Positions 16,235-29,440 of a DNA stretch of 64,000 nt are shown here, one piece after another (position 1 is the first letter of the stretch; the number at the start of each line of letters is the position of its first letter). This DNA is from a phage. The translations under genes and the position numbers were made by a program. The notes beneath the pieces were generated by a model. The model saw nothing but the letters and a program-made list of their open reading frames with translations, searched no databases and was not told the DNA's origin. Where the stretch lies: the sequence record PZ509022.1, one strand, 5' to 3'.

Positions 16235-18048
16235 TGGTGTTTAACCCTATGCATGATTTCTTTATTTTTACCGAGATTAAATCCGCGTTCGTTCGGATTT
16301 CCCAAATAACCACATGTTCTTCTTATTGTGTTCATCTTTTTAGGATCAGTTTCTCCACAAATAGAACAAACAAATCCGTTTTCAGTAGGAGTCATTTCAT
16401 GGGTACTTCCGCATGTAAAACATTTATCTACTGGCATATTAACACCAAAATAATCTAAATGTTGTGCAGCATAATCCCATACGGCCTCAAGGCCTTTTAA
16501 GTTATTTTTCATATCAGGAAGTTCAACATAAGAAATGTGACCACCTGTCGCAATGAAATGATATGGCGCTTCACGAGAAATCTTTTCAAACGGAGTAATA
16601 TTTTCTTCTACTGAAACATGGAAACTATTAGTGTACCAGCCTTTATCAGTAACATCCTTTACACTTCCATATTTCTCAGTATCAAGTTTACAGAAGCGAT
16701 AGCACAGGTTTTCAGCAGGAGTAGAATACAAGCTAAAAGCAAAACCAGTTCTTTCAGTCCACTGCTTAAGACGAGCATTCATTTTAGTTAAAATTTCTTG
16801 TCCAATATCACGACCGACAAGAATATTCAATTCGTGAATACCAATGTATCCTAGGGACACTGAACTTCTACCGTTTTTAAATAACTCAATTATGTCGTCA
16901 TCAGGTTTAAGACGAACCCCGAATGCACCTTCTTGGTAAAGAATAGGAGCAACAGTAGCTTTAACTCCTTTTAAGGAACTAATTCTACACATCAAAGCTT
17001 CAAAACATAAATCCATTCGTTCATTAAATAGCTCAACAAATTTCTGTTCATTGAATTGTGTTCCAATATAAGAATCTAACGCGATGCGAGGAAGATTCAG
17101 TGTTACAACACCAAGATTATTACGTCCATCAAGAATTTCATTACCAGTCGAATCTTTCCATACGCTCAAGAAACTACGGCAACCCATTGGAGAAACAGGA
17201 ACAGATGAACCAGTGATAGCTTTATTGTTCTTAGCTGAAATAATATCAGGATACATCCTTTTGCTTGCACACTCTAGAGCAAGCTGCTTAATATCATAGT
17301 TCGGATCGTCTTTGTAAAGATTAACGCCTTCTTCGACGAACATAACAAGCTTAGGGAAAATAGGAGTTATCCCATCACGACCGAGACCTTTAATACGATT
17401 TTTCAGAATTGCTTTCTGAATCATTCGTTCAGTCCAGTCAGTTCCCGTACCAAATGTAATTGTTACAAAAGGCGTTTGTCCGTTTGAACTAAAGAGAGTA
17501 TTTACTTCATATTCATAAGCTTGGAATGCATCGTATACGTCTTTTTCTGTTTTAGATTGAGCATAATTCAACGCATCAGCGATTTGCCATTTTTCTGCAT
17601 CCTCAATATGTTTTGCATATGTGCGTTTAACATAAGGAGAAAGTACTTTATCTACATTAGCAAAAGTCGTTCCGCCGTATTGGTGAGAAGCAACCTGTGC
17701 AGTAATTTGTGCCATAATTGCAGTAGCAACGCCAATTGATTTAGGAGTTTCAATTTGAGCATTGCCTAATTTAAATCCATTCTCAAGCATTCCTTTTAAA
17801 TCTACTAAACAGCAATTAGTAAAAGGCAATGATATACTGTAATCTAAATCGTGAAAATGAATTAATCCGACATTATGAGCATTTACAATATGGCTCGGAA
17901 GAATACTACAAGCGATATGTTTAGAAACAATACCGGCCATTAAATCTCTTTTTGTTGGAAAGACACGAGAATCTTTGTTGGCATTTTCGGTATTTAATTC
18001 TTTATCTTTATTTGAAATAAAATTTAAAACATCTTTCTCTAAAGACAT
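16231..18048 (-). CDS. nrdD: anaerobic ribonucleoside-triphosphate reductase NrdD, uninterrupted (605 aa)
   Basis: 605 aa single ORF; C-terminal zinc ribbon and glycyl radical region. Confidence 0.95.
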   Translation of the reverse strand: MSLEKDVLNFISNKDKELNTENANKDSRVFPTKRDLMAGIVSKHIACSILPSHIVNAHNVGLIHFHDLDYSISLPFTNCCLVDLKGMLENGFKLGNAQIETPKSIGVATAIMAQITAQVASHQYGGTTFANVDKVLSPYVKRTYAKHIEDAEKWQIADALNYAQSKTEKDVYDAFQAYEYEVNTLFSSNGQTPFVTITFGTGTDWTERMIQKAILKNRIKGLGRDGITPIFPKLVMFVEEGVNLYKDDPNYDIKQLALECASKRMYPDIISAKNNKAITGSSVPVSPMGCRSFLSVWKDSTGNEILDGRNNLGVVTLNLPRIALDSYIGTQFNEQKFVELFNERMDLCFEALMCRISSLKGVKATVAPILYQEGAFGVRLKPDDDIIELFKNGRSSVSLGYIGIHELNILVGRDIGQEILTKMNARLKQWTERTGFAFSLYSTPAENLCYRFCKLDTEKYGSVKDVTDKGWYTNSFHVSVEENITPFEKISREAPYHFIATGGHISYVELPDMKNNLKGLEAVWDYAAQHLDYFGVNMPVDKCFTCGSTHEMTPTENGFVCSICGETDPKKMNTIRRTCGYLGNPNERGFNLGKNKEIMHRVKHQ

Positions 18049-18860
18049 AATTCTAATTTATCCTTTTGAAATTCTTCGTCTAAATATGGGTTCCAACCCA
18101 TTTTAAACCTTTTGATGAAATTATCAATTCTAAATTTCGGTAAATTTAACTCCGCAAAAATAGATGATTTACTTTTAAAATCTGGACCTAAATAATCATA
18201 TAAAATTTCTGCGTATTTTAACCATAATATATAAGTACCAGATTTAATTGCTCTAGGAGTTTTCCAAGGTTTTACGCCGTACATCGGATTTCCACTTCCT
18301 TTATGCCTGATAGAAGATGAAATTCCAATTTTAATTTTAGCTTCCTTTGTGTGCGAAAATCCATGATGTGGATTTTCTTTCCAGTATTTTTTAGAAGCTT
18401 CTGATATTTTCTTTCTGGCTAAATTAGTATGATGCTTTCCATAAAATCCATGATTTTTACCTTTATTACGATTTCTTTTAATCATGGTTATTGATTGCTT
18501 TTCTCTAGTTTCTTTAGAAGGGGAAACACCGTACGTTGTAAATTGACCATTAGCATATGCTAAATTAAAATACTCTTTATTCCATATATCTTTTTCTATA
18601 TTCTTTTGAAATTCAGCTTCAATGCTAGTTATTTGTTCATCTCCGACTAATTGAAAATATAATATTTCAACTTTCGGTGTTTCTTTCAACAGAGCTTTTT
18701 GAAATTCGGAAGATGACGAAGACGAATAATAAAATTTACCATTTTTATCAATAATATTCGTTCCGTCAAAAGTGCAATTGGTTTTACTTCCAATATAATA
18801 ATATGGCGGGGTTTTAGCATTAATTCTACTAATAAATGATAGTTTATATACTACATTCAT
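18039..18860 (-). CDS. Seg-like GIY-YIG homing endonuclease candidate with NUMOD3-like repeats (273 aa)
   Basis: N-terminal VYKLSFI...YYYIGSKTN; repeats GKNHGFYGKHHTNLARKKISEA and NPHHGFSHTKEAKIKIG. Confidence 0.6.
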   Translation of the reverse strand: MNVVYKLSFISRINAKTPPYYYIGSKTNCTFDGTNIIDKNGKFYYSSSSSSEFQKALLKETPKVEILYFQLVGDEQITSIEAEFQKNIEKDIWNKEYFNLAYANGQFTTYGVSPSKETREKQSITMIKRNRNKGKNHGFYGKHHTNLARKKISEASKKYWKENPHHGFSHTKEAKIKIGISSSIRHKGSGNPMYGVKPWKTPRAIKSGTYILWLKYAEILYDYLGPDFKSKSSIFAELNLPKFRIDNFIKRFKMGWNPYLDEEFQKDKLELCL

Positions 18861-19979: not shown

Positions 19980-20150
19980 TTAACCCCGAAGCTTATTAAG
20001 TTCTTCATAATCAATCCAGGATTCTAATCCTGATGGCAAATCAGATTCAATTTCCCAAAGAAGTTCTTCAATTTTCTGAAGACGATCTAGTTCTTCGGCT
20101 GGAATAGTAACCATTGACGGAGCTCGTGATACATTAATATCGTAAATCAT
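19980..20150 (-). CDS. hypothetical protein
   Basis: ORF 19980..20189 trimmed to internal Met. Confidence 0.35.
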   Translation of the reverse strand: MIYDINVSRAPSMVTIPAEELDRLQKIEELLWEIESDLPSGLESWIDYEELNKLRG

Positions 20151-20152
20151 AT

Positions 20153-20368
20153 TTACCCCAGTTTGACCATGCAATCGCCGTATTTCCACTTAGAAATAGA
20201 CTTTTCACCGTTAGAATAATAAACTTCGAGTTTAGCACGATTATTTTTAATTTGAATAACCTTTGCTGTCATCAAAGTTCCATACCCATAGTAAACTGCA
20301 ACTTCATCACCTACATATACCGCGCTTCCGCGGTAATCGTGAATATAGTCAGTTCCTTCGAGCATCAT
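20153..20368 (-). CDS. hypothetical protein
   Basis: 71 aa; start overlaps nrdC stop (ATGA). Confidence 0.45.
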   Translation of the reverse strand: MMLEGTDYIHDYRGSAVYVGDEVAVYYGYGTLMTAKVIQIKNNRAKLEVYYSNGEKSISKWKYGDCMVKLG

Positions 20369-20629: not shown

Positions 20630-20872
20630 TTATTCCTTAATTCCTAGTACTTGTTTAAAAGTCTCGTCGTAATCAAGACTTTGGCCCGTTTGTTCTTTAT
20701 GTTTGTATATAATATCACTTACTTCTGATAGCATATTTTTATATGAACGAGTTAAAGCAGATTTAAGCACGCTGTATCTATCAGGAAATTTACCGTGTTC
20801 ATTATAATAAGCTATTGCTAATTCACGGACTGCCTTTTCAGCAGTCTCCATATATTCTTTACGCTTGGCCAT
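20630..20872 (-). CDS. hypothetical protein
   Basis: ORF 20630..21031 trimmed to MAKRKEY. Confidence 0.4.
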
Positions 20873-21176
20873 TTTCTTCTCGGTCAAATCGGTGTTTACA
20901 ATGGCGACATTTATAACGAAGATTACTAGTCTGCCAATGGACCAATTGCACCTGTTCAGTTCCACATTCAGGGCAATTAGGAACGTTTTTAGAAGCGCGT
21001 TCGCGGCGTTCAACCATAACCATAATGGCATACCAAGCAGGAGGTTTAAAATCTAAATCATCACAACCATGAATCTTTCCGCGCATTTCCAGATCGTCTT
21101 CTTCACCAGCCATAATAATTTTAATTAGACTGGAATTACTTGAAGCTGCAATATCTTCTAATAGACGCTTTTTCAT
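20859..21176 (-). CDS. zinc-ribbon protein (CPECG...CRHC)
   Basis: 105 aa, two Cys pairs. Confidence 0.45.
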
Positions 21177-22102
21177 TTCAATACCTCAATAGCATTACGT
21201 AAACCATTTGCTTTTGCATTAAGAGCTTTTAACAATTTAGTGTGTTCGGCAATCTGAGCTTCAACTTCAACTAGTCGAGATTTGAGGTATTCACGTTCTT
21301 CGCTCAAGTTATCAATCTTTTCTACTTTAGGCTCTTTTACAACTGTCTTATATGTATTAGGGTTCTTCAGTTTAATTAAAATGCGTGAACTGTATAACAT
21401 TGAACCATTATCTTCGGTTTCGTCATACATTTCTACTACATCCATAATTTTTAACATCATGCGGAGTTTATAAGACAACGAACGAATAGTTTTGTTGTGC
21501 TTATTAATTTCTTTAGCTGTCATGGTGCCGAGATTACGTGAGTAATAATAAGGAACCTGGATATTAATTAATACTGATGAACCACCTGGCTTGTGTGTTA
21601 CTTCATCAGCAATAACCCAATCTTTAACATGAACTTTATTTGTACGATTATCGCCACCTGTGAATAATTTACAAGAATGTTTAAAAAGCATATTCACTTG
21701 GTTATTGAATTCACAAGCAAATTTATCAGCAAATTTAGTTTCAGGAATGGTAGATAACCAATCAGCTAAATGAGTCTTTTTAACATCGTTAATAATAGTA
21801 AATTCAACCAAATCGGTTATAGATGTCGCAGTTTTAATGAAGCTCGGCTTCATAAAGTTTTTAATGTTATCACGAGCTACAGTAGAAGATAACATACGAG
21901 AACGTTTGAACCATTGAAGCAACGTCCCTAACGAATGAGAATAAGCGTTTTGAGTATCTTTACAGATATGATTTTCCTGGCCAACATATTGAAGGAAATC
22001 ACGAAGAATATTATTGATTACTGCTCTGTGTCCGATCTGATAATTACGGTGTTTAGTAATAAGACTGTCAAAATAATCAATATAATGTTTACGAGTTTTC
22101 AT
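21173..22102 (-). CDS. hypothetical protein with C-terminal coiled coil (309 aa)
   Basis: ORF track; heptad-like C-terminus. Confidence 0.55.
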   Translation of the reverse strand: MKTRKHYIDYFDSLITKHRNYQIGHRAVINNILRDFLQYVGQENHICKDTQNAYSHSLGTLLQWFKRSRMLSSTVARDNIKNFMKPSFIKTATSITDLVEFTIINDVKKTHLADWLSTIPETKFADKFACEFNNQVNMLFKHSCKLFTGGDNRTNKVHVKDWVIADEVTHKPGGSSVLINIQVPYYYSRNLGTMTAKEINKHNKTIRSLSYKLRMMLKIMDVVEMYDETEDNGSMLYSSRILIKLKNPNTYKTVVKEPKVEKIDNLSEEREYLKSRLVEVEAQIAEHTKLLKALNAKANGLRNAIEVLK

Positions 22103-22154
22103 GTTCTTCTCACTTGGTTAATGATTTATACTCCGAGCCATCCTTGGCTTTAAA

Positions 22155-23156
22155 TTACTTAATTAACTGTAAAGCTTGTTCCAGACGATCAAGACGATTA
22201 ACAGATTCTTCCCAAATCCTTTTAGCCTGCTCATATTCTTTCTGCGCTTTATTAGAAATTTCTAGAACTTCTTTATAAGCTTTTTCTAGTGCAATAACTT
22301 CTGGACGAATTTCTACCGGTTCAGGTGAATCGTCAAGACATTCCATTAGTTCCTCAAGGGTAGTTTCTTCTTTAGGAGTATTCACAATTTCATCACATTT
22401 TTGTTGGTAAATTTCTTTATCAGTAGGTGAATAAGCACATTTCACTTCACGAAGGCTAATTACGAGTTTATATCCTTCCCAACCGCATATATTCTTAAAA
22501 GGATATGTATGAATATTTTCTACTGTTTCCATACAAAGTAATGCGGTCTCTAATTGACGAGTTATAGTGCTAGCAATTGAGAAAAATTTATTAATATTCT
22601 TTTGGTTAGTTTCTGGTGTAAAAAATCCATAATTCACAAAAATAGATACTTTATTTTTATCAAGTTCATATTCTTTTATGATAATCATATCAGAAGCCAA
22701 AGGATGAATTTGACGATAATCGCCATAACATAATTTAGAAGCTGATTTTAGAATCTGTCCTTTGAAAAGTCTGAAATTACTAATCCAACGACGAGTAAAA
22801 ATATTCTCAGGGTCTTCTTTATTATTAAGATGATAAGAATTAACATCACCGAACCAATTATATCCTACTACATCTTTGGTTCGTTTAATTTCTTTCCCAA
22901 AATTACCAAGAATATCCCGATTAACCAAATATGAAAGAAGACGAGACTCTTTAAAGGTTTTCTTGATAACATCTTTATCTACACGACTAGAAATTTTACG
23001 AATTTCATGAATAAATTTAGTAGAAGAAACAATACTTGCATCAACACTATTGAGCCATTGATTGATAATAGAAAGAACGATATTTTGACCAAACATCGGT
23101 ATAGCTTTATCATCAATAACGCTATTGAATGATTTGATATATTCGTTACGAGTCAT
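22155..23156 (-). CDS. hypothetical protein with C-terminal coiled coil (333 aa)
   Basis: ORF 22155..23207 trimmed so the early promoter lies upstream. Confidence 0.5.
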   Translation of the reverse strand: MTRNEYIKSFNSVIDDKAIPMFGQNIVLSIINQWLNSVDASIVSSTKFIHEIRKISSRVDKDVIKKTFKESRLLSYLVNRDILGNFGKEIKRTKDVVGYNWFGDVNSYHLNNKEDPENIFTRRWISNFRLFKGQILKSASKLCYGDYRQIHPLASDMIIIKEYELDKNKVSIFVNYGFFTPETNQKNINKFFSIASTITRQLETALLCMETVENIHTYPFKNICGWEGYKLVISLREVKCAYSPTDKEIYQQKCDEIVNTPKEETTLEELMECLDDSPEPVEIRPEVIALEKAYKEVLEISNKAQKEYEQAKRIWEESVNRLDRLEQALQLIK

Positions 23157-23184
23157 ATTAATCTCCTCAGTAGAAAGTAAGAAC

Positions 23185-23215
23185 ATTATACCACATCCTT
23201 GTGGCAAAGTAAACT
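23185..23215 (-). promoter_or_regulatory. T4-type early promoter (rc GTTTAC, 18 nt, TATAAT)
   Basis: plus attataccac ... agtaaac. Confidence 0.5.
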
Positions 23216-24239
23216 AGTTCAGTGCATTTAGTGCATTGTTCAGTTTAGAACGTTGCTTTGTCAGATTTTGAACCCTTGACTGAGCTTGTTCTAACGCTTT
23301 TTCAGCTTCTAGCACTTCATTGGTCGCTTTAACGAGTTCATCATCTACTGCCTTAAGGGACTTCTCAATCGCATCCGCGTGCCATTTTTCAACAGGTTTA
23401 AGACTCGGATTTTCAATAGGAAGAAAATTCACTTTATTGAATTTCCATGCATCATTATTACCTGAACTATACATCCAAAATTTAGAATCGTTTGATGAGT
23501 AATTGGATAAATTTAAATTTAAGTTATCTTGCACTTCTTGCTTTTTCTCTTGCGGGACTTCGTCCTTTCTCAAAAATTCATATTTAAATGAAACAATCAT
23601 ATCAAGTTCATATGTTGTTGTATCTAACTTAAATCGTTCAAAACGAGGTAAAATCTTAGATTGAACAGCAGCAACAACATCCATATACTTAAATGCTTCT
23701 GTCAACTGTGATTTAAGGCATTCACAAATTGAAAGAGAATTTTTTGTATTAGGTTTAAAGCTAATTCGTGCAGTTCTATTATTTTCTTTTAACGGTCTTA
23801 CTTCCATCTGAAGAGTATAACCATCAAATTTCAGATTCTTTAAGTTAATATCAGAACCTTTTAATCGACTAGCCGTAGACAAAATTTGCTTTAATTGTTT
23901 ACGGAATAGAGCAATAAATCTCCATTCAAGACGATAATGATTTGGATTAAAAAATCCTGTTGATAAATCAACCTTACTCTGACCAACGCCTTGAACAAAT
24001 AGAGGATTTTTATAATCAATAGTTTTACAGAAATCGGTGAGCTGCTCACGAGCAGTCATTTGTGTAATATATCCCGCTTTACTAAAATGACGTAACCATT
24101 CACTGCTATTCATATACTTAAAGTGAATGGAACTATTAACTCTATCAGGGTCTAAATTATTTTGGCACAAAAATGTCATAACATTACGGGTATAGCTAGC
24201 ATTACGAACCATATCTTCAATTTGAGAACGAGTTTTCAT
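23214..24239 (-). CDS. hypothetical protein with C-terminal coiled coil (341 aa)
   Basis: ORF track. Confidence 0.55.
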   Translation of the reverse strand: MKTRSQIEDMVRNASYTRNVMTFLCQNNLDPDRVNSSIHFKYMNSSEWLRHFSKAGYITQMTAREQLTDFCKTIDYKNPLFVQGVGQSKVDLSTGFFNPNHYRLEWRFIALFRKQLKQILSTASRLKGSDINLKNLKFDGYTLQMEVRPLKENNRTARISFKPNTKNSLSICECLKSQLTEAFKYMDVVAAVQSKILPRFERFKLDTTTYELDMIVSFKYEFLRKDEVPQEKKQEVQDNLNLNLSNYSSNDSKFWMYSSGNNDAWKFNKVNFLPIENPSLKPVEKWHADAIEKSLKAVDDELVKATNEVLEAEKALEQAQSRVQNLTKQRSKLNNALNALN

Positions 24240-24247
24240 GGTGTTCC

Positions 24248-25156
24248 TTAAGATTTAAGTAAATCAACGATTTTAATTAATTTTTCACGCTCAGATTTAG
24301 CTTTACTACTCAATCCAGATAGTCTGAAAATTTCATCATCATATTGCTGAATAGAAATATTTAGCTCTTCAATCTGCTTATTAAAATAAGCAATTTGTTC
24401 AGAATGTTTTTCATTACTGCGAACTGGTACAGGTTTTGTAGGTAATTTAGTTGAACTGGATTCATCTGGGCGATAAATTAAAATGCAATTTGAACCAATC
24501 GGACATTTAGCACCAGACACATATTCTAATATTCCGGCTTCTTTTAAAACTTCAAAAGCTAAACAGAGATGATGCCCCATATTAACATAATCTGTAGAGC
24601 GAGCTCTGATGTAATAATCATCTCCACGAGTACTAAATTTAAAGCATTTAAGGTCTTCTGTATTATTGGTCTTAAAAATCATTTGTTTATCTAGACCTTT
24701 AGCTAATCGAGCGCCTAATGCTAATAATCGTCTTTGATTTTCCCACAAATCTGCGATCATTTGGTCAAATGATAATTTCGGCATTAGTCGACCATAAAGG
24801 TCGTATCCTTTATTATAATTGCGAAGGATTTCACTCGCATTAATACGAGACAATGCTCCAATTTTATTAAGGGCTTTCATAATGCGATTAGATAAACCCA
24901 TTCCAGACCCGTTTGTTCGCTGCAAATGTTTTTCTAATCCAAATCCAATATCAACTTTAAACTTATCTAAAATTTCTGCATGAACATCTCTGTCAATAAC
25001 ATTCAAATCCAAAGTTGGGTTAAATCTATGAAAAAATTTATCTGGCTCTCCACGACGAAGTACAGTCCATTCATTTGATTTTTTATTAACTAAAGATTTA
25101 ATTACTGCATTGACATTATTAATTACTACTGACATATTTTCCTCACTCAATTTCAA
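24248..25156 (-). CDS. hypothetical protein with C-terminal coiled coil (302 aa)
   Basis: ORF track. Confidence 0.55.
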   Translation of the reverse strand: MKLSEENMSVVINNVNAVIKSLVNKKSNEWTVLRRGEPDKFFHRFNPTLDLNVIDRDVHAEILDKFKVDIGFGLEKHLQRTNGSGMGLSNRIMKALNKIGALSRINASEILRNYNKGYDLYGRLMPKLSFDQMIADLWENQRRLLALGARLAKGLDKQMIFKTNNTEDLKCFKFSTRGDDYYIRARSTDYVNMGHHLCLAFEVLKEAGILEYVSGAKCPIGSNCILIYRPDESSSTKLPTKPVPVRSNEKHSEQIAYFNKQIEELNISIQQYDDEIFRLSGLSSKAKSEREKLIKIVDLLKS

Positions 25157-25556: not shown

Positions 25557-25611
25557 AATAATCTCAATTAAAAGGGCTTAGAACCATTATACCATCCTTG
25601 GTATAAAGCGG

Positions 25612-26603: not shown

Positions 26604-27572
26604 TTATTTCAGAAGAGTAACCTCAGCAATTTCTTCCCAACCGTTTTTGTCGGTCATAATAAAGTCAGCAAGATAAAGAGCAGTACGCAGTGAAACATTG
26701 CGTAAACGGTTAACATTGACTTTCATCCATGATAATGCTTTATAAGTTTCTTCATCAGAAAGACCACGCTTTTGCATCATGTCGGTTGAAAGAATAACAT
26801 CTTCAACCCTGACCATAATTTCTTCATTAGTGTGAACACCCAAATCCAAATAAACTGAGCGGGACACTAATGCTTGTAAATGTGGAGCAAGTTTAGTACC
26901 ACGGTCTAATTCGCGGTCAATGTCAACGTTTGTGATAAAAACAATCGTTCCTTTAAATTCAAACTCACGCTCAATGCCTTTTTCTTCTAAGTAAGAAGAT
27001 GCAGTGCTCCAGCAGACTTTACGGGTCTCTCCAGTGTCCAGAGCAGCTTTCAGAAGATTAAGAATGTCCATATCAGAGAAAACATCCACATCATCAATCA
27101 AAAGGACAGAATTCTCTTCACGATTATTCCAAAGCTGTTCATAAAGACCGATACCGGAGATTTTACCGTTAATGCTTTTATATTCAATGTATCCATTGTC
27201 ATTTGCTTTATTTAAAGCTTTATCTAAAGAATACGTTTTACCAATACCCGCCGCACCAGAGATAATTAATGAACGAATGTTTCCGTTAATAATACCATTC
27301 GTCATCATTCCCATAACATTAAATCTTTTATTAATGCGGGTTTTCATATCTTCATACGATTCTTTAACTTCTTCAACTTTTACACCATCATATGAAATGT
27401 CTGATTTGTAAACCCAAACGCCGCGACGCTTACCGTCAATTTCAACAAAAACTTTACCATCTCCTTGTGCATCTACCGGAGCATTATCTGGGAACCATTC
27501 GCCTAAGAGCTCAAAAGTTCCAGAGATTTCTTTACCGAAGTAGATACCCTTATTGATAGTTACAGTTTTCAT
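26604..27572 (-). CDS. P-loop NTPase, AAA-like (322 aa)
   Basis: Walker A GAAGIGKT, Walker B VLLIDDVD. Confidence 0.6.
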   Translation of the reverse strand: MKTVTINKGIYFGKEISGTFELLGEWFPDNAPVDAQGDGKVFVEIDGKRRGVWVYKSDISYDGVKVEEVKESYEDMKTRINKRFNVMGMMTNGIINGNIRSLIISGAAGIGKTYSLDKALNKANDNGYIEYKSINGKISGIGLYEQLWNNREENSVLLIDDVDVFSDMDILNLLKAALDTGETRKVCWSTASSYLEEKGIEREFEFKGTIVFITNVDIDRELDRGTKLAPHLQALVSRSVYLDLGVHTNEEIMVRVEDVILSTDMMQKRGLSDEETYKALSWMKVNVNRLRNVSLRTALYLADFIMTDKNGWEEIAEVTLLK

Positions 27573-28407: not shown

Positions 28408-28428
28408 GGAGCCCGAAGGCTCCCTATC
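28408..28428 (-). terminator. UUCG-loop hairpin ggagcc-cgaa-ggctcc plus U-run
   Basis: rc gives hairpin followed by TTTTTTATTT. Confidence 0.65.
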
Positions 28429-29440
28429 ATTTATAATAACTTCGATGGTTTTCGAGATACACCTTCTCAAGGAAGTCATCCCAGAAACTCATGTCTACTT
28501 TTTGCTGCATACCGTTCTTAGAAGCTTCAGTAGATGCTGCTTCTACTTGATCGACCACATCTTCCAAAAACTCTTGAACCGTTTTAAATGGATGTTTACC
28601 CAACTTCACGTCGAGAATAAATGGAGCGTCTTGAAGTGGATAAACCAAGTCACCAGTTTTGTAAATTTCCAATAGTTGAAGTCCACCACGGCATGCATGG
28701 CTCAGAGCTTTCCAGTCAATGCCTTCATTGGCTTCGGCCTTACGAGCGCGTTCACCGTATTCAGCATCTAATTTGTTCAGTGACTGCTTAAGCTCAATAA
28801 GAGAAAGCGTTGTCTGATATTTACGACCCAACACAGTGTAGAACGTTTGTGGGCCTGTTTTCTCATGATTATGGAACACCCATTCACAGAATTCGTTTTC
28901 TGGAAGACGATGCTTAATATCTTCAACTTTAGTACGACGCTGCTTAATAGAACCATCTTCTTGGTAATCAATCCATTGCTCAGGGATTTGATTAACTACT
29001 TTCAATACATCACGTAATGCAGCCAAACGAGAACCCTTGACGCCATATTTAGAAGCTTGCTTACGGACATATCCTAAATAGGATTTCATGTTAGTCGTAT
29101 AAAAACGAGAACGGTTGTCTTGAATAAACTTCCACACATCAGGCAAATCAGATTTAACCACTAGTTCAGGTGGAGTGTGAAGCATATCCAATGCTACAGT
29201 TTCACCATCTGCTGCTAATTTAAAGAAATATTTAAGACTGTATAGTTCATGGTCAATATCATCTTTAGTGTTTTTAGATGATGTGTTGTTAGTGTTTTTA
29301 CTCATGTGCTCTTTAACATTTCCGATAAGAATATCACGAGCAGGAGGAACAAAGATTTCTTTAAAATCTACATCAGATTCTGGGGTAGAAGTTCCATAAA
29401 GATGACTACCAAAATAGCTTTTCATTACTGTTTTCATCAT
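28427..29440 (-). CDS. predicted nucleotidyltransferase (Pol beta superfamily) (337 aa)
   Basis: N-terminal GSHLYGTSTPESDVDF matches the G[SG]x9-13DxD motif. Confidence 0.6.
   Translation of the reverse strand: MMKTVMKSYFGSHLYGTSTPESDVDFKEIFVPPARDILIGNVKEHMSKNTNNTSSKNTKDDIDHELYSLKYFFKLAADGETVALDMLHTPPELVVKSDLPDVWKFIQDNRSRFYTTNMKSYLGYVRKQASKYGVKGSRLAALRDVLKVVNQIPEQWIDYQEDGSIKQRRTKVEDIKHRLPENEFCEWVFHNHEKTGPQTFYTVLGRKYQTTLSLIELKQSLNKLDAEYGERARKAEANEGIDWKALSHACRGGLQLLEIYKTGDLVYPLQDAPFILDVKLGKHPFKTVQEFLEDVVDQVEAASTEASKNGMQQKVDMSFWDDFLEKVYLENHRSYYK

Follow-up and report, generated by a model that had tools for sequence, protein, structure and literature searches.

What are the four adjacent genes that occupy positions 21173 to 25156 of the phage sequence PZ509022.1, and are they copies of one gene? 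The window analysed here, a 64,000-nucleotide stretch of that record, comes from a Tequatrovirus (T4-like phage), and the 4-kb region in question shows ~97% DNA identity to Tequatrovirus genomes (97.5% to Escherichia phage slur03), with matches in 657 phage records. By transfer of names from the annotation of vB_Eco_NR1, the genes are nrdC.3, nrdC.4, nrdC.5 and nrdC.6. Their products fall into three database families, which are joined here into one proposed superfamily of head-linker-coil proteins anchored by the anti-Dsr1 protein NrdC.5 of phage T4. This result is modest but useful.

The sequence-only reading of this DNA had listed four consecutive open reading frames (ORFs) of 309, 333, 341 and 302 amino acids (aa). 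All four are present, on the minus strand like every other gene of the locus and every window feature described below. The nrdC.3 gene spans 21173..22102 (309 aa; phrog_1435, E 2.5e-115) and nrdC.4 spans 22155..23156 (333 aa from its ATG; phrog_1435, E 2.4e-168), the raw ORF of the latter being longer (350 aa, up to a TTG). They are followed by nrdC.5 at 23214..24239 (341 aa; DUF7235, PF23882, E 1.7e-119) and nrdC.6 at 24248..25135 (295 aa; phrog_2257, E 5.9e-151). NrdC.6 is more likely 295 than 302 aa long, as the start annotated in related phages is the ATG at 25135, which is preceded by a GAGGA Shine-Dalgarno-like sequence; the 302-aa version begins at a TTG at 25156. Some of the array genes are separated by just 7-8 nucleotides (nt). 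Relatives were found by tblastn in 654 (nrdC.3), 554 (nrdC.4), 582 (nrdC.5) and 742 (nrdC.6) phage records, all from T4-like phages of enterobacteria, and conservation across 554-742 records means that these are no chance ORFs.

Compared with their T4 counterparts, NrdC.4, NrdC.5 and NrdC.6 are 98.5%, 94.7% and 98% identical, respectively. NrdC.3 shows 61% identity to the T4 and RB33 copies and 82% to the copy of the Mosigvirus phage SA35RD, and the window therefore carries an nrdC.3 allele different from that of T4. NrdC.5 scored 399 bits with the DUF7235 hidden Markov model (HMM; cut-off 30), its residues 1-341 aligning to profile positions 1-307. All NrdC.4 homologues, as well as one hybrid containing NrdC.3, matched PF26897 (Phage_T4_Y04OP), and PF26899 (Phage_T4_Y05B) was found in 105/105 NrdC.6 homologues. 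The window proteins NrdC.3, NrdC.4 and NrdC.6 are full-length members of PF26897/PHROG 1435 and PF26899/PHROG 2257.

NrdC.3 and NrdC.4 are clearly related to each other. BLASTP aligned them with 26% identity over 231 aa (E 1e-7), hhalign gave a probability of 98% (E 1.5e-13), and the two share one PHROG (1435); newer Pfam releases also merge both as Phage_T4_Y04OP. For the comparison with NrdC.5, the NrdC.3+4 and NrdC.5 profiles were enriched with diverged orthologues from Gaprivervirus, Dhakavirus and Mosigvirus and with distant members from an exhaustive search. Over the full length, hhalign matched these profiles with a probability of 96.6% (E 5e-10, 291 columns). When the last 60 residues were cut, the remaining head still matched at 94.5% (E 8e-8) with a score of 58.8, against 12.8 ± 2.1 for column-shuffled controls, and across runs the head-domain match varied from 89 to 94.5% (E 2e-6 to 8e-8). 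The probability climbed with added diversity (26%, 53%, 89%) and was independent of any single added sequence.

The same relationship is visible as a series of collinear motifs. Between NrdC.3/4 and NrdC.5 these comprise an N-terminal M(K)TR, FKxSRLLS...F aligned with FSKAGYITQ...F, a conserved helix pair, and a block reading CMETVE, IMDVVE or YMDVVA. In the alignments the helix-pair motif of NrdC.5, WRFIALFRKQLKQILSTASRL, lies at 23862..23924, and its counterparts are RRWISNFRLFKGQILKSASKL in NrdC.4 (22731-22793), FACEFNNQVNMLFKHSCKLF in NrdC.3 (21662-21721) and LWENQRRLLALGARLAKG in NrdC.6 (24695-24748). The resemblance between IMDVVE and YMDVVA had been noticed earlier in two of the four proteins, and it is real: in both MAFFT and hhalign alignments the block pairs with CMETVE of NrdC.4 inside the collinear motif set. 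It corresponds to LTEAFKYMDVVAAV in NrdC.5 (23664..23705; YMDVVA, aa 179-192 region), LRMMLKIMDVVEMY in NrdC.3 (21425-21466; IMDVVE, aa 213-226 region) and LETALLCMETVENI in NrdC.4 (22512-22553; CMETVE), and the counterpart in NrdC.6 is HHLCLAFEVLKEAG (24533-24574). We consider it very likely that NrdC.3, NrdC.4 and NrdC.5 are homologous.

NrdC.6 is probably a distant member of the same family. The alternative, in which NrdC.6 is unrelated, its head and C-terminal coil layout is convergent and the true paralog set numbers three, draws on the failure of direct BLASTP to match it to the other three proteins, on hhalign probabilities of just 3-14%, on a negative leave-one-out coil HMM and on low Foldseek template modelling (TM) scores to shared targets (0.2-0.5). 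We regard this alternative as unlikely, since four kinds of evidence favour membership of NrdC.6. In the AlphaFold2 models, NrdC.5 and NrdC.6 have their elements in one common order: N-terminal helices and a helix pair, then two strands, a helix and two more strands, and finally a linker and the C-terminal helix. Foldseek searches of BFVD with the two models returned four full-length matches in common, E5E4A2, A0A0K1LMI4, A0A1V0DXL6 and A0A2Z4QAR2 (E 6e-7 to 3e-4), which are uncharacterised ~300-aa proteins of Straboviridae. The head-domain hhalign scores of NrdC.6 (29.8 and 24.4), low as their probabilities are, exceed the shuffled controls (12.5 ± 1.6) by 7-11 standard deviations. Finally, single-copy proteins of Klebsiella and Enterobacter phages bridge the families: the NrdC.3+4 head HMM detected gp080 of Klebsiella phage Marfa (E 6e-12), P0236 (91% identical to Marfa gp080) matched gp085 of Enterobacter phage IME523 in tblastn (E 2e-9, 80% of length), and this gp085 was matched by the HMMs of both NrdC.6 (E 1.3e-8) and NrdC.5 (E 1.4e-6). 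Judged by its length (335 aa) and its phage of origin, gp085 appears to be BFVD entry A0A7G3KGN9, a match of the NrdC.6 model at E 6.5e-7. The syntenic genomic position of NrdC.6 also speaks against an unrelated origin. The paralog array proposed in the sequence-only reading is therefore clear for NrdC.3 and NrdC.4, holds for NrdC.5 by profile-profile comparison, and is probable but not proven for NrdC.6 (hhalign 14%). NrdC.8 (175 aa, helix-ended) was also considered as a family member and rejected, having a coil HMM E value of 7.3 and no match with the full-length HMMs.

The earlier description of a heptad-rich C-terminus in each ORF agrees with the periodicity of the proteins. By a cruder heptad score, only NrdC.3 and NrdC.5 reached significance; the best window of NrdC.4 was N-terminal, and NrdC.6 was non-significant. 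This score was replaced by a family-profile test, in which the Fourier power at period 3.5 of family-averaged hydrophobicity was computed for all windows of each protein and compared with 2000 shuffles. The last 50-56 residues ranked 1/260 in NrdC.3, 1/284 in NrdC.4, 2/286 in NrdC.5 and 1/253 in NrdC.6 (p ≤ 0.0035). The segments lie at 21176..21325 in NrdC.3 (aa 260-309, p 0.003), 22158..22307 in NrdC.4 (aa 284-333, p 0.0015), 23217..23390 in NrdC.5 (aa 284-341, p < 0.0005) and 24251..24403 in NrdC.6 (aa 252-302 in the 302-aa numbering, with a kink at SGLSS; p 0.0035). Each has a single uninterrupted a/d register filled mainly by L, I, V and A. Counted from the C-terminus, this register is identical in all four families, and the coils are of equal length with a similar end motif, L-x-x-[AI]-[ILV]-x-x-L-[KN]. 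In the AlphaFold2 models, NrdC.5 ends in one 57-residue helix (284-340; predicted local distance difference test, pLDDT, 76-92), which follows a predicted disordered linker (aa 226-283; 23391..23564), and NrdC.6 ends in helices 252-278 and 284-301, again preceded by a linker. Thus, all four proteins end in a candidate coiled coil, judged by heptad periodicity in each and by long predicted helices in NrdC.5 and NrdC.6.

The predicted layout begins with N-terminal helices and the conserved helix pair, continues with a beta-beta-alpha-beta-beta unit and a disordered linker, and finishes at the C-terminus with an amphipathic heptad helix of ~50 residues. This layout was modelled in NrdC.5 and NrdC.6 and is extended to NrdC.3 and NrdC.4 because the alignments are collinear. 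Within families, conservation is highest in the C-terminal coil and the helix pair, and variability peaks in the N-terminal helices and the beta3-beta4 hairpin; in the NrdC.5 family the linker is the segment with the most indels and the least conservation.

Members of this family occur in T4-like phages only. Among 1.84 billion representative proteins, an exhaustive profile search recovered just 17 clusters, from T4-like phages wherever the source was checked, and a locus search with the NrdC.6 alignment found nothing beyond the same close genera. The comparison of conservation and copy number across T4-like phages, which had been suggested as a check, revealed 1 to 4 copies depending on the lineage. 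Marfavirus and Kanagawavirus have a single copy at the syntenic site, beside an nrdC.2-like gene. Three copies are present in Mosigvirus (NrdC.3, NrdC.5-like and NrdC.6-like, without nrdC.4) and in Gaprivervirus and Dhakavirus (NrdC.4, NrdC.5-like and NrdC.6, without nrdC.3), and four in Tequatrovirus.

The array proteins evolve faster than their neighbours, yet under purifying selection: the gene-wide ratio of nonsynonymous to synonymous substitution rates (dN/dS) is 0.13-0.32 for the array genes against 0.02-0.15 for neighbouring genes. Their diversity arises mainly via allele or mosaic replacement, hybrids and module swaps. NrdC.3 falls into three allele classes (~95%, 78% and 61% identity) and is itself a mosaic, with residues 1-60 being 83-100% identical to RB33 and the middle part 26-50%. 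The array had been called diversifying, which is borne out by allele replacement, hybrids, swaps and dN/dS values above those of the neighbours, but not by the values themselves, which are well below 1.

Several natural variants illustrate rearrangements at this locus. In ACG-C40 (L007 3805-4216), a natural deletion fuses NrdC.5 codon ~68 to NrdC.3 codon ~238, removing nrdC.4 and most of nrdC.3 and nrdC.5, and the array is therefore dispensable in nature too. Metagenome T4-like phages (L010 4570-5900 and L011 1931-3261) carry an in-frame hybrid, NrdC.5(aa 145-273)::NrdC.3(aa 134-309) (protein P0056), found in two independent assemblies; its junction is a microhomology (KFNKVN / EFNNQVN), the locus has lost nrdC.4, and upstream lies a 115-aa ORF, presumably an N-terminal remnant of NrdC.5. 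An 803-bp metagenome contig (L008 120-641) encodes a 173-aa protein (P0234) with an unrelated 117-aa N-terminal part and a near-identical NrdC.5 C-terminal coil, the gene being located directly upstream of an nrdC.4 start. On the basis of this single short contig, P0234 suggests head swapping on a conserved coil. The NrdC.6 of Shigella phage Sf25 (P0121, 378 aa) contains an internal tandem duplication of ~82 residues (NrdC.6 aa 177-259) that runs from the helix through the second beta hairpin and the linker into the beginning of the coil.

What these proteins do is best approached through NrdC.5. A T4 deletion mutant cannot plate on ECOR17 owing to the SIR2-domain defence Dsr1, and expression of T4 nrdC.5, an "uncharacterized early gene", brings back plating of the deletion mutant on dsr1-carrying E. 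coli (PMC9391042). This result of Srikant, Guegler and Laub (eLife 2022) is a phenotype only (PMC9391042). In a 2026 preprint, the sensor of Dsr1 is a TPR domain recognising phage major capsid proteins (PMC12803255). Other genes of the same T4 region also counter host defences, gp49.2 being an inhibitor of OLD (PMC13096335) and nrdC.1 an inhibitor of Septu (bioRxiv 10.1101/2025.11.20.689424), and a T4 nrdC.1-6 deletion is viable (PMC9825161). The unknown function assigned to the four proteins in the sequence-only reading is outdated for one of them, since the T4 orthologue of NrdC.5 is a published anti-Dsr1 gene (PMC9391042). Because the two orthologues (UniProt Y05A in T4, DUF7235) are 94.7% identical over the full length and syntenic in position, the window NrdC.5 is expected to share this activity; of the 21 residues at which the window allele differs, most belong to the linker or the N-terminal helices. 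A literature search found no paper on NrdC.3, NrdC.4 or NrdC.6, nor one linking any of them to NrdC.5.

On balance, we favour the view that nrdC.3-6 are accessory genes derived from one ancestral gene, each encoding an early counter-defence protein. For NrdC.5 this role was demonstrated in T4, and we infer it for NrdC.3, NrdC.4 and NrdC.6, as we do direct binding of a target and the role of the coil. Each paralog would be made early in infection, which is stated for T4 nrdC.5 and suggested by promoter cassettes for the others. Its fast-evolving head (the N-terminal helices and the beta3-beta4 hairpin) would bind one particular host immune protein, and the conserved C-terminal helix would mediate oligomerisation and so provide avidity towards immune sensors that are themselves oligomers, or alternatively dock on the target. 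NrdC.5 would neutralise the SIR2-type NADase Dsr1, most likely by occupying its TPR sensor ahead of the major capsid protein, a late product that would otherwise trigger Dsr1, and NrdC.3, NrdC.4 and NrdC.6 would act likewise on other defence proteins or variants.

Several points weigh against this view. Experimental support covers NrdC.5 alone among the four, as a phenotype, and the text of the HIDEN-SEQ preprint names only nrdC.1 for this region (bioRxiv 10.1101/2025.11.20.689424). For NrdC.6, the hhalign probability of just 3-14% is accompanied by head-only HMM E values of 1e-3 to 3e-3. The AlphaFold2 models are of moderate confidence, with mean pLDDT values of 68 and 75. A leave-one-family-out HMM built from the C-terminal 49 residues never recovered the omitted family, and what the coils demonstrably share is therefore architecture and register rather than sequence.

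The equal length of the four coils, their common C-terminal register and their similar end motif could also be read differently, namely that the four proteins are subunits of one hetero-oligomer joined by these helices and acting on a single target or process. The close spacing of the adjacent genes and the coil being the best-conserved segment within each family would fit such a complex. We find it improbable, given that plasmid-expressed nrdC.5 alone rescued plating of the deletion mutant (PMC9391042) and that no coil sequence similarity is detectable across families. In addition, copy number and composition vary by genus (1, 3 or 4) and natural phages have lost several members, which disfavours an obligate complex.

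A host-takeover or housekeeping role without a link to immunity (nucleotide metabolism, DNA binding or redox), with an indirect effect of NrdC.5 on Dsr1, is very improbable: the genes do lie in a nucleotide-metabolism neighbourhood between nrdC and nrdC.11, many records label them thioredoxin, and NrdC.3 aa 30-85 weakly resembles the tyrosine recombinase N-terminal SAM-like domain (E 0.003-0.1, sub-threshold), but none of the four matches thioredoxin, glutaredoxin or another enzyme family or contains CxxC, the label seems to stem from the name nrdC, the recombinase matches are far under curated cut-offs, and the combination of dispensability on laboratory hosts, a requirement on a Dsr1 host (nrdC.5), restriction to T4-like phages and high variability fits accessory arms-race genes, not housekeeping.

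The label itself is widespread, many GenBank genomes naming nrdC.1 to nrdC.10 "thioredoxin", these four included. A thioredoxin or glutaredoxin identity was rejected here, there being no Pfam or NCBIfam match, no CxxC and a predicted helix-rich fold whose beta-beta-alpha-beta-beta unit is not thioredoxin-like; the label appears to have been propagated from the name of nrdC. Two further assignments fell below threshold and were not used, namely NrdC.3 aa 30-85 as an XerD / Phage_int_SAM_1 domain (E 0.003-0.1) and the NrdC.5 model as a tail terminator or tail completion protein (Foldseek E ~1e-2). Sequence and profile searches of PDB gave nothing significant for the family, and PADLOC and NCBIfam gave only sub-threshold, coiled-coil-type or spurious matches.

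Among known systems, a working analogy for NrdC.5 is DSAD1 of phage SPbeta, which inhibits the SIR2 defence DSR2 by binding it and opposing its activation by a phage structural protein (PMC10981675, PMC11087589, PMC10973363). Both are phage proteins that stop a SIR2-type NADase, but the target of NrdC.5 is Dsr1, not DSR2, and its binding is putative. Reportedly, DSAD1 binds specifically the sensor region of DSR2. No resemblance to DSAD1 in sequence or fold was detected; BFVD matches of the NrdC.5 and NrdC.6 models at E < 1e-3 were all unnamed and almost all from T4-like phages, with none labelled DSAD1. A second comparison is with gp49.2 (anti-OLD), NrdC.1 (anti-Septu), TifA, Dmd and AdfA (anti-toxin-antitoxin island) of the early hyperplastic regions of T4. 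Like the nrdC.3-6 genes, these are early accessory island genes, dispensable in the laboratory, needed on particular hosts and variable among T4-like phages. In contrast, their sequences are unrelated, they are mostly small single-domain proteins, and none is described as multi-copy head-linker-coil paralogs. The databases keep the three families of the array apart and of unknown function, whereas both NrdC.5 (with good support) and NrdC.6 (with moderate support) are joined here to Y04OP.

Three promoter cassettes accompany the array. A T4-early-type cassette upstream of nrdC.4 (23185..23213, minus strand) consists of TTTACT, a 17-nt spacer, TATAAT and a CCACAAGGATGTGG hairpin, and is PeSL-like. 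A related cassette with a core match, CAAGGATG...TATAAA, is located upstream of nrdC.3 (22125..22146), and another, CAAGGATGGTATAAT, upstream of nrdC.7 (25586..25600), where it heads the closely spaced run of nrdC.7, nrdC.6 and nrdC.5. The core CAAGGATG...TATAAW has three matches in 64 kb, all within the array region, against 0.02 expected. PeSL cassettes (early promoter plus hairpin) are known from T4-type phages, in which cassette shuffling has been described (PMC2839356, PMC4122927), and by analogy the three PeSL-like cassettes may mediate such shuffling here.

Directly downstream of nrdC.3, with a 4-nt overlap, lies nrdC.2 (20859-21176, minus strand), encoding a 105-aa protein with a CPEC...CRHC zinc ribbon and several weak zinc-ribbon Pfam matches. 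In Marfa, an nrdC.2-like gene (BLASTp note to T4 NP_049700.1) comes after the only member of the family, and in IME523 a small unannotated gene is found there. A short distance upstream of the array, this accessory region also contains nrdC.10 (26604-27572, minus strand), whose product has P-loop/STAND-like NTPase matches, all sub-threshold, and nrdC.11 (28427-29440, minus strand), encoding an RlaP-type nucleotidyltransferase (E 1.8e-11). T4 gp49.2 (the OLD inhibitor) and 49.3 are missing from the window between pin/49.1 and nrdC. Their place is taken by a 71-aa DUF7205 protein (20153-20368, minus strand) and a 69-aa ORF (19980-20189, minus strand) whose match to the T7 gp5.9 RecBCD inhibitor (E 6e-4) scores 20 bits, below the cut-off of 24.5. 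In related phages, one of the ORFs found here bears the RefSeq label "antitoxin from a toxin-antitoxin system". A 273-aa ORF (18039-18860, minus strand) with a NUMOD3 motif (E 5e-8) lies between gene 49 (endonuclease VII) and nrdD and overlaps each of them by a few bases. It has the appearance of a free-standing homing endonuclease and is missing in vB_Eco_NR1 and RB33, whose gene 49 directly adjoins nrdD.

The link of NrdC.3, NrdC.4 and NrdC.6 to NrdC.5 makes them concrete counter-defence candidates that are cheap to test, and the analysis corrects the widespread mis-annotation of nrdC.3-nrdC.6 as thioredoxin. Viewed as a family, the proteins also provide a structural starting point for the silencing of Dsr1, a widespread SIR2 NADase. 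More tentatively, and with rather less confidence than we place in their common counter-defence role, the array may represent an expandable counter-immune repertoire of T-even phages, in which one linker and coil scaffold carries interchangeable, fast-evolving heads, grew from one to four copies and directs each head against a different host sensor. If so, NrdC.3, NrdC.4 and NrdC.6 would be three undiscovered anti-defence proteins, and new specificities would arise through natural hybrids and head swaps (NrdC.5::NrdC.3, or the NrdC.5 coil with a foreign head). A variable head on a conserved coil would then be a reusable design, which may explain how phages diversify their inhibitors.

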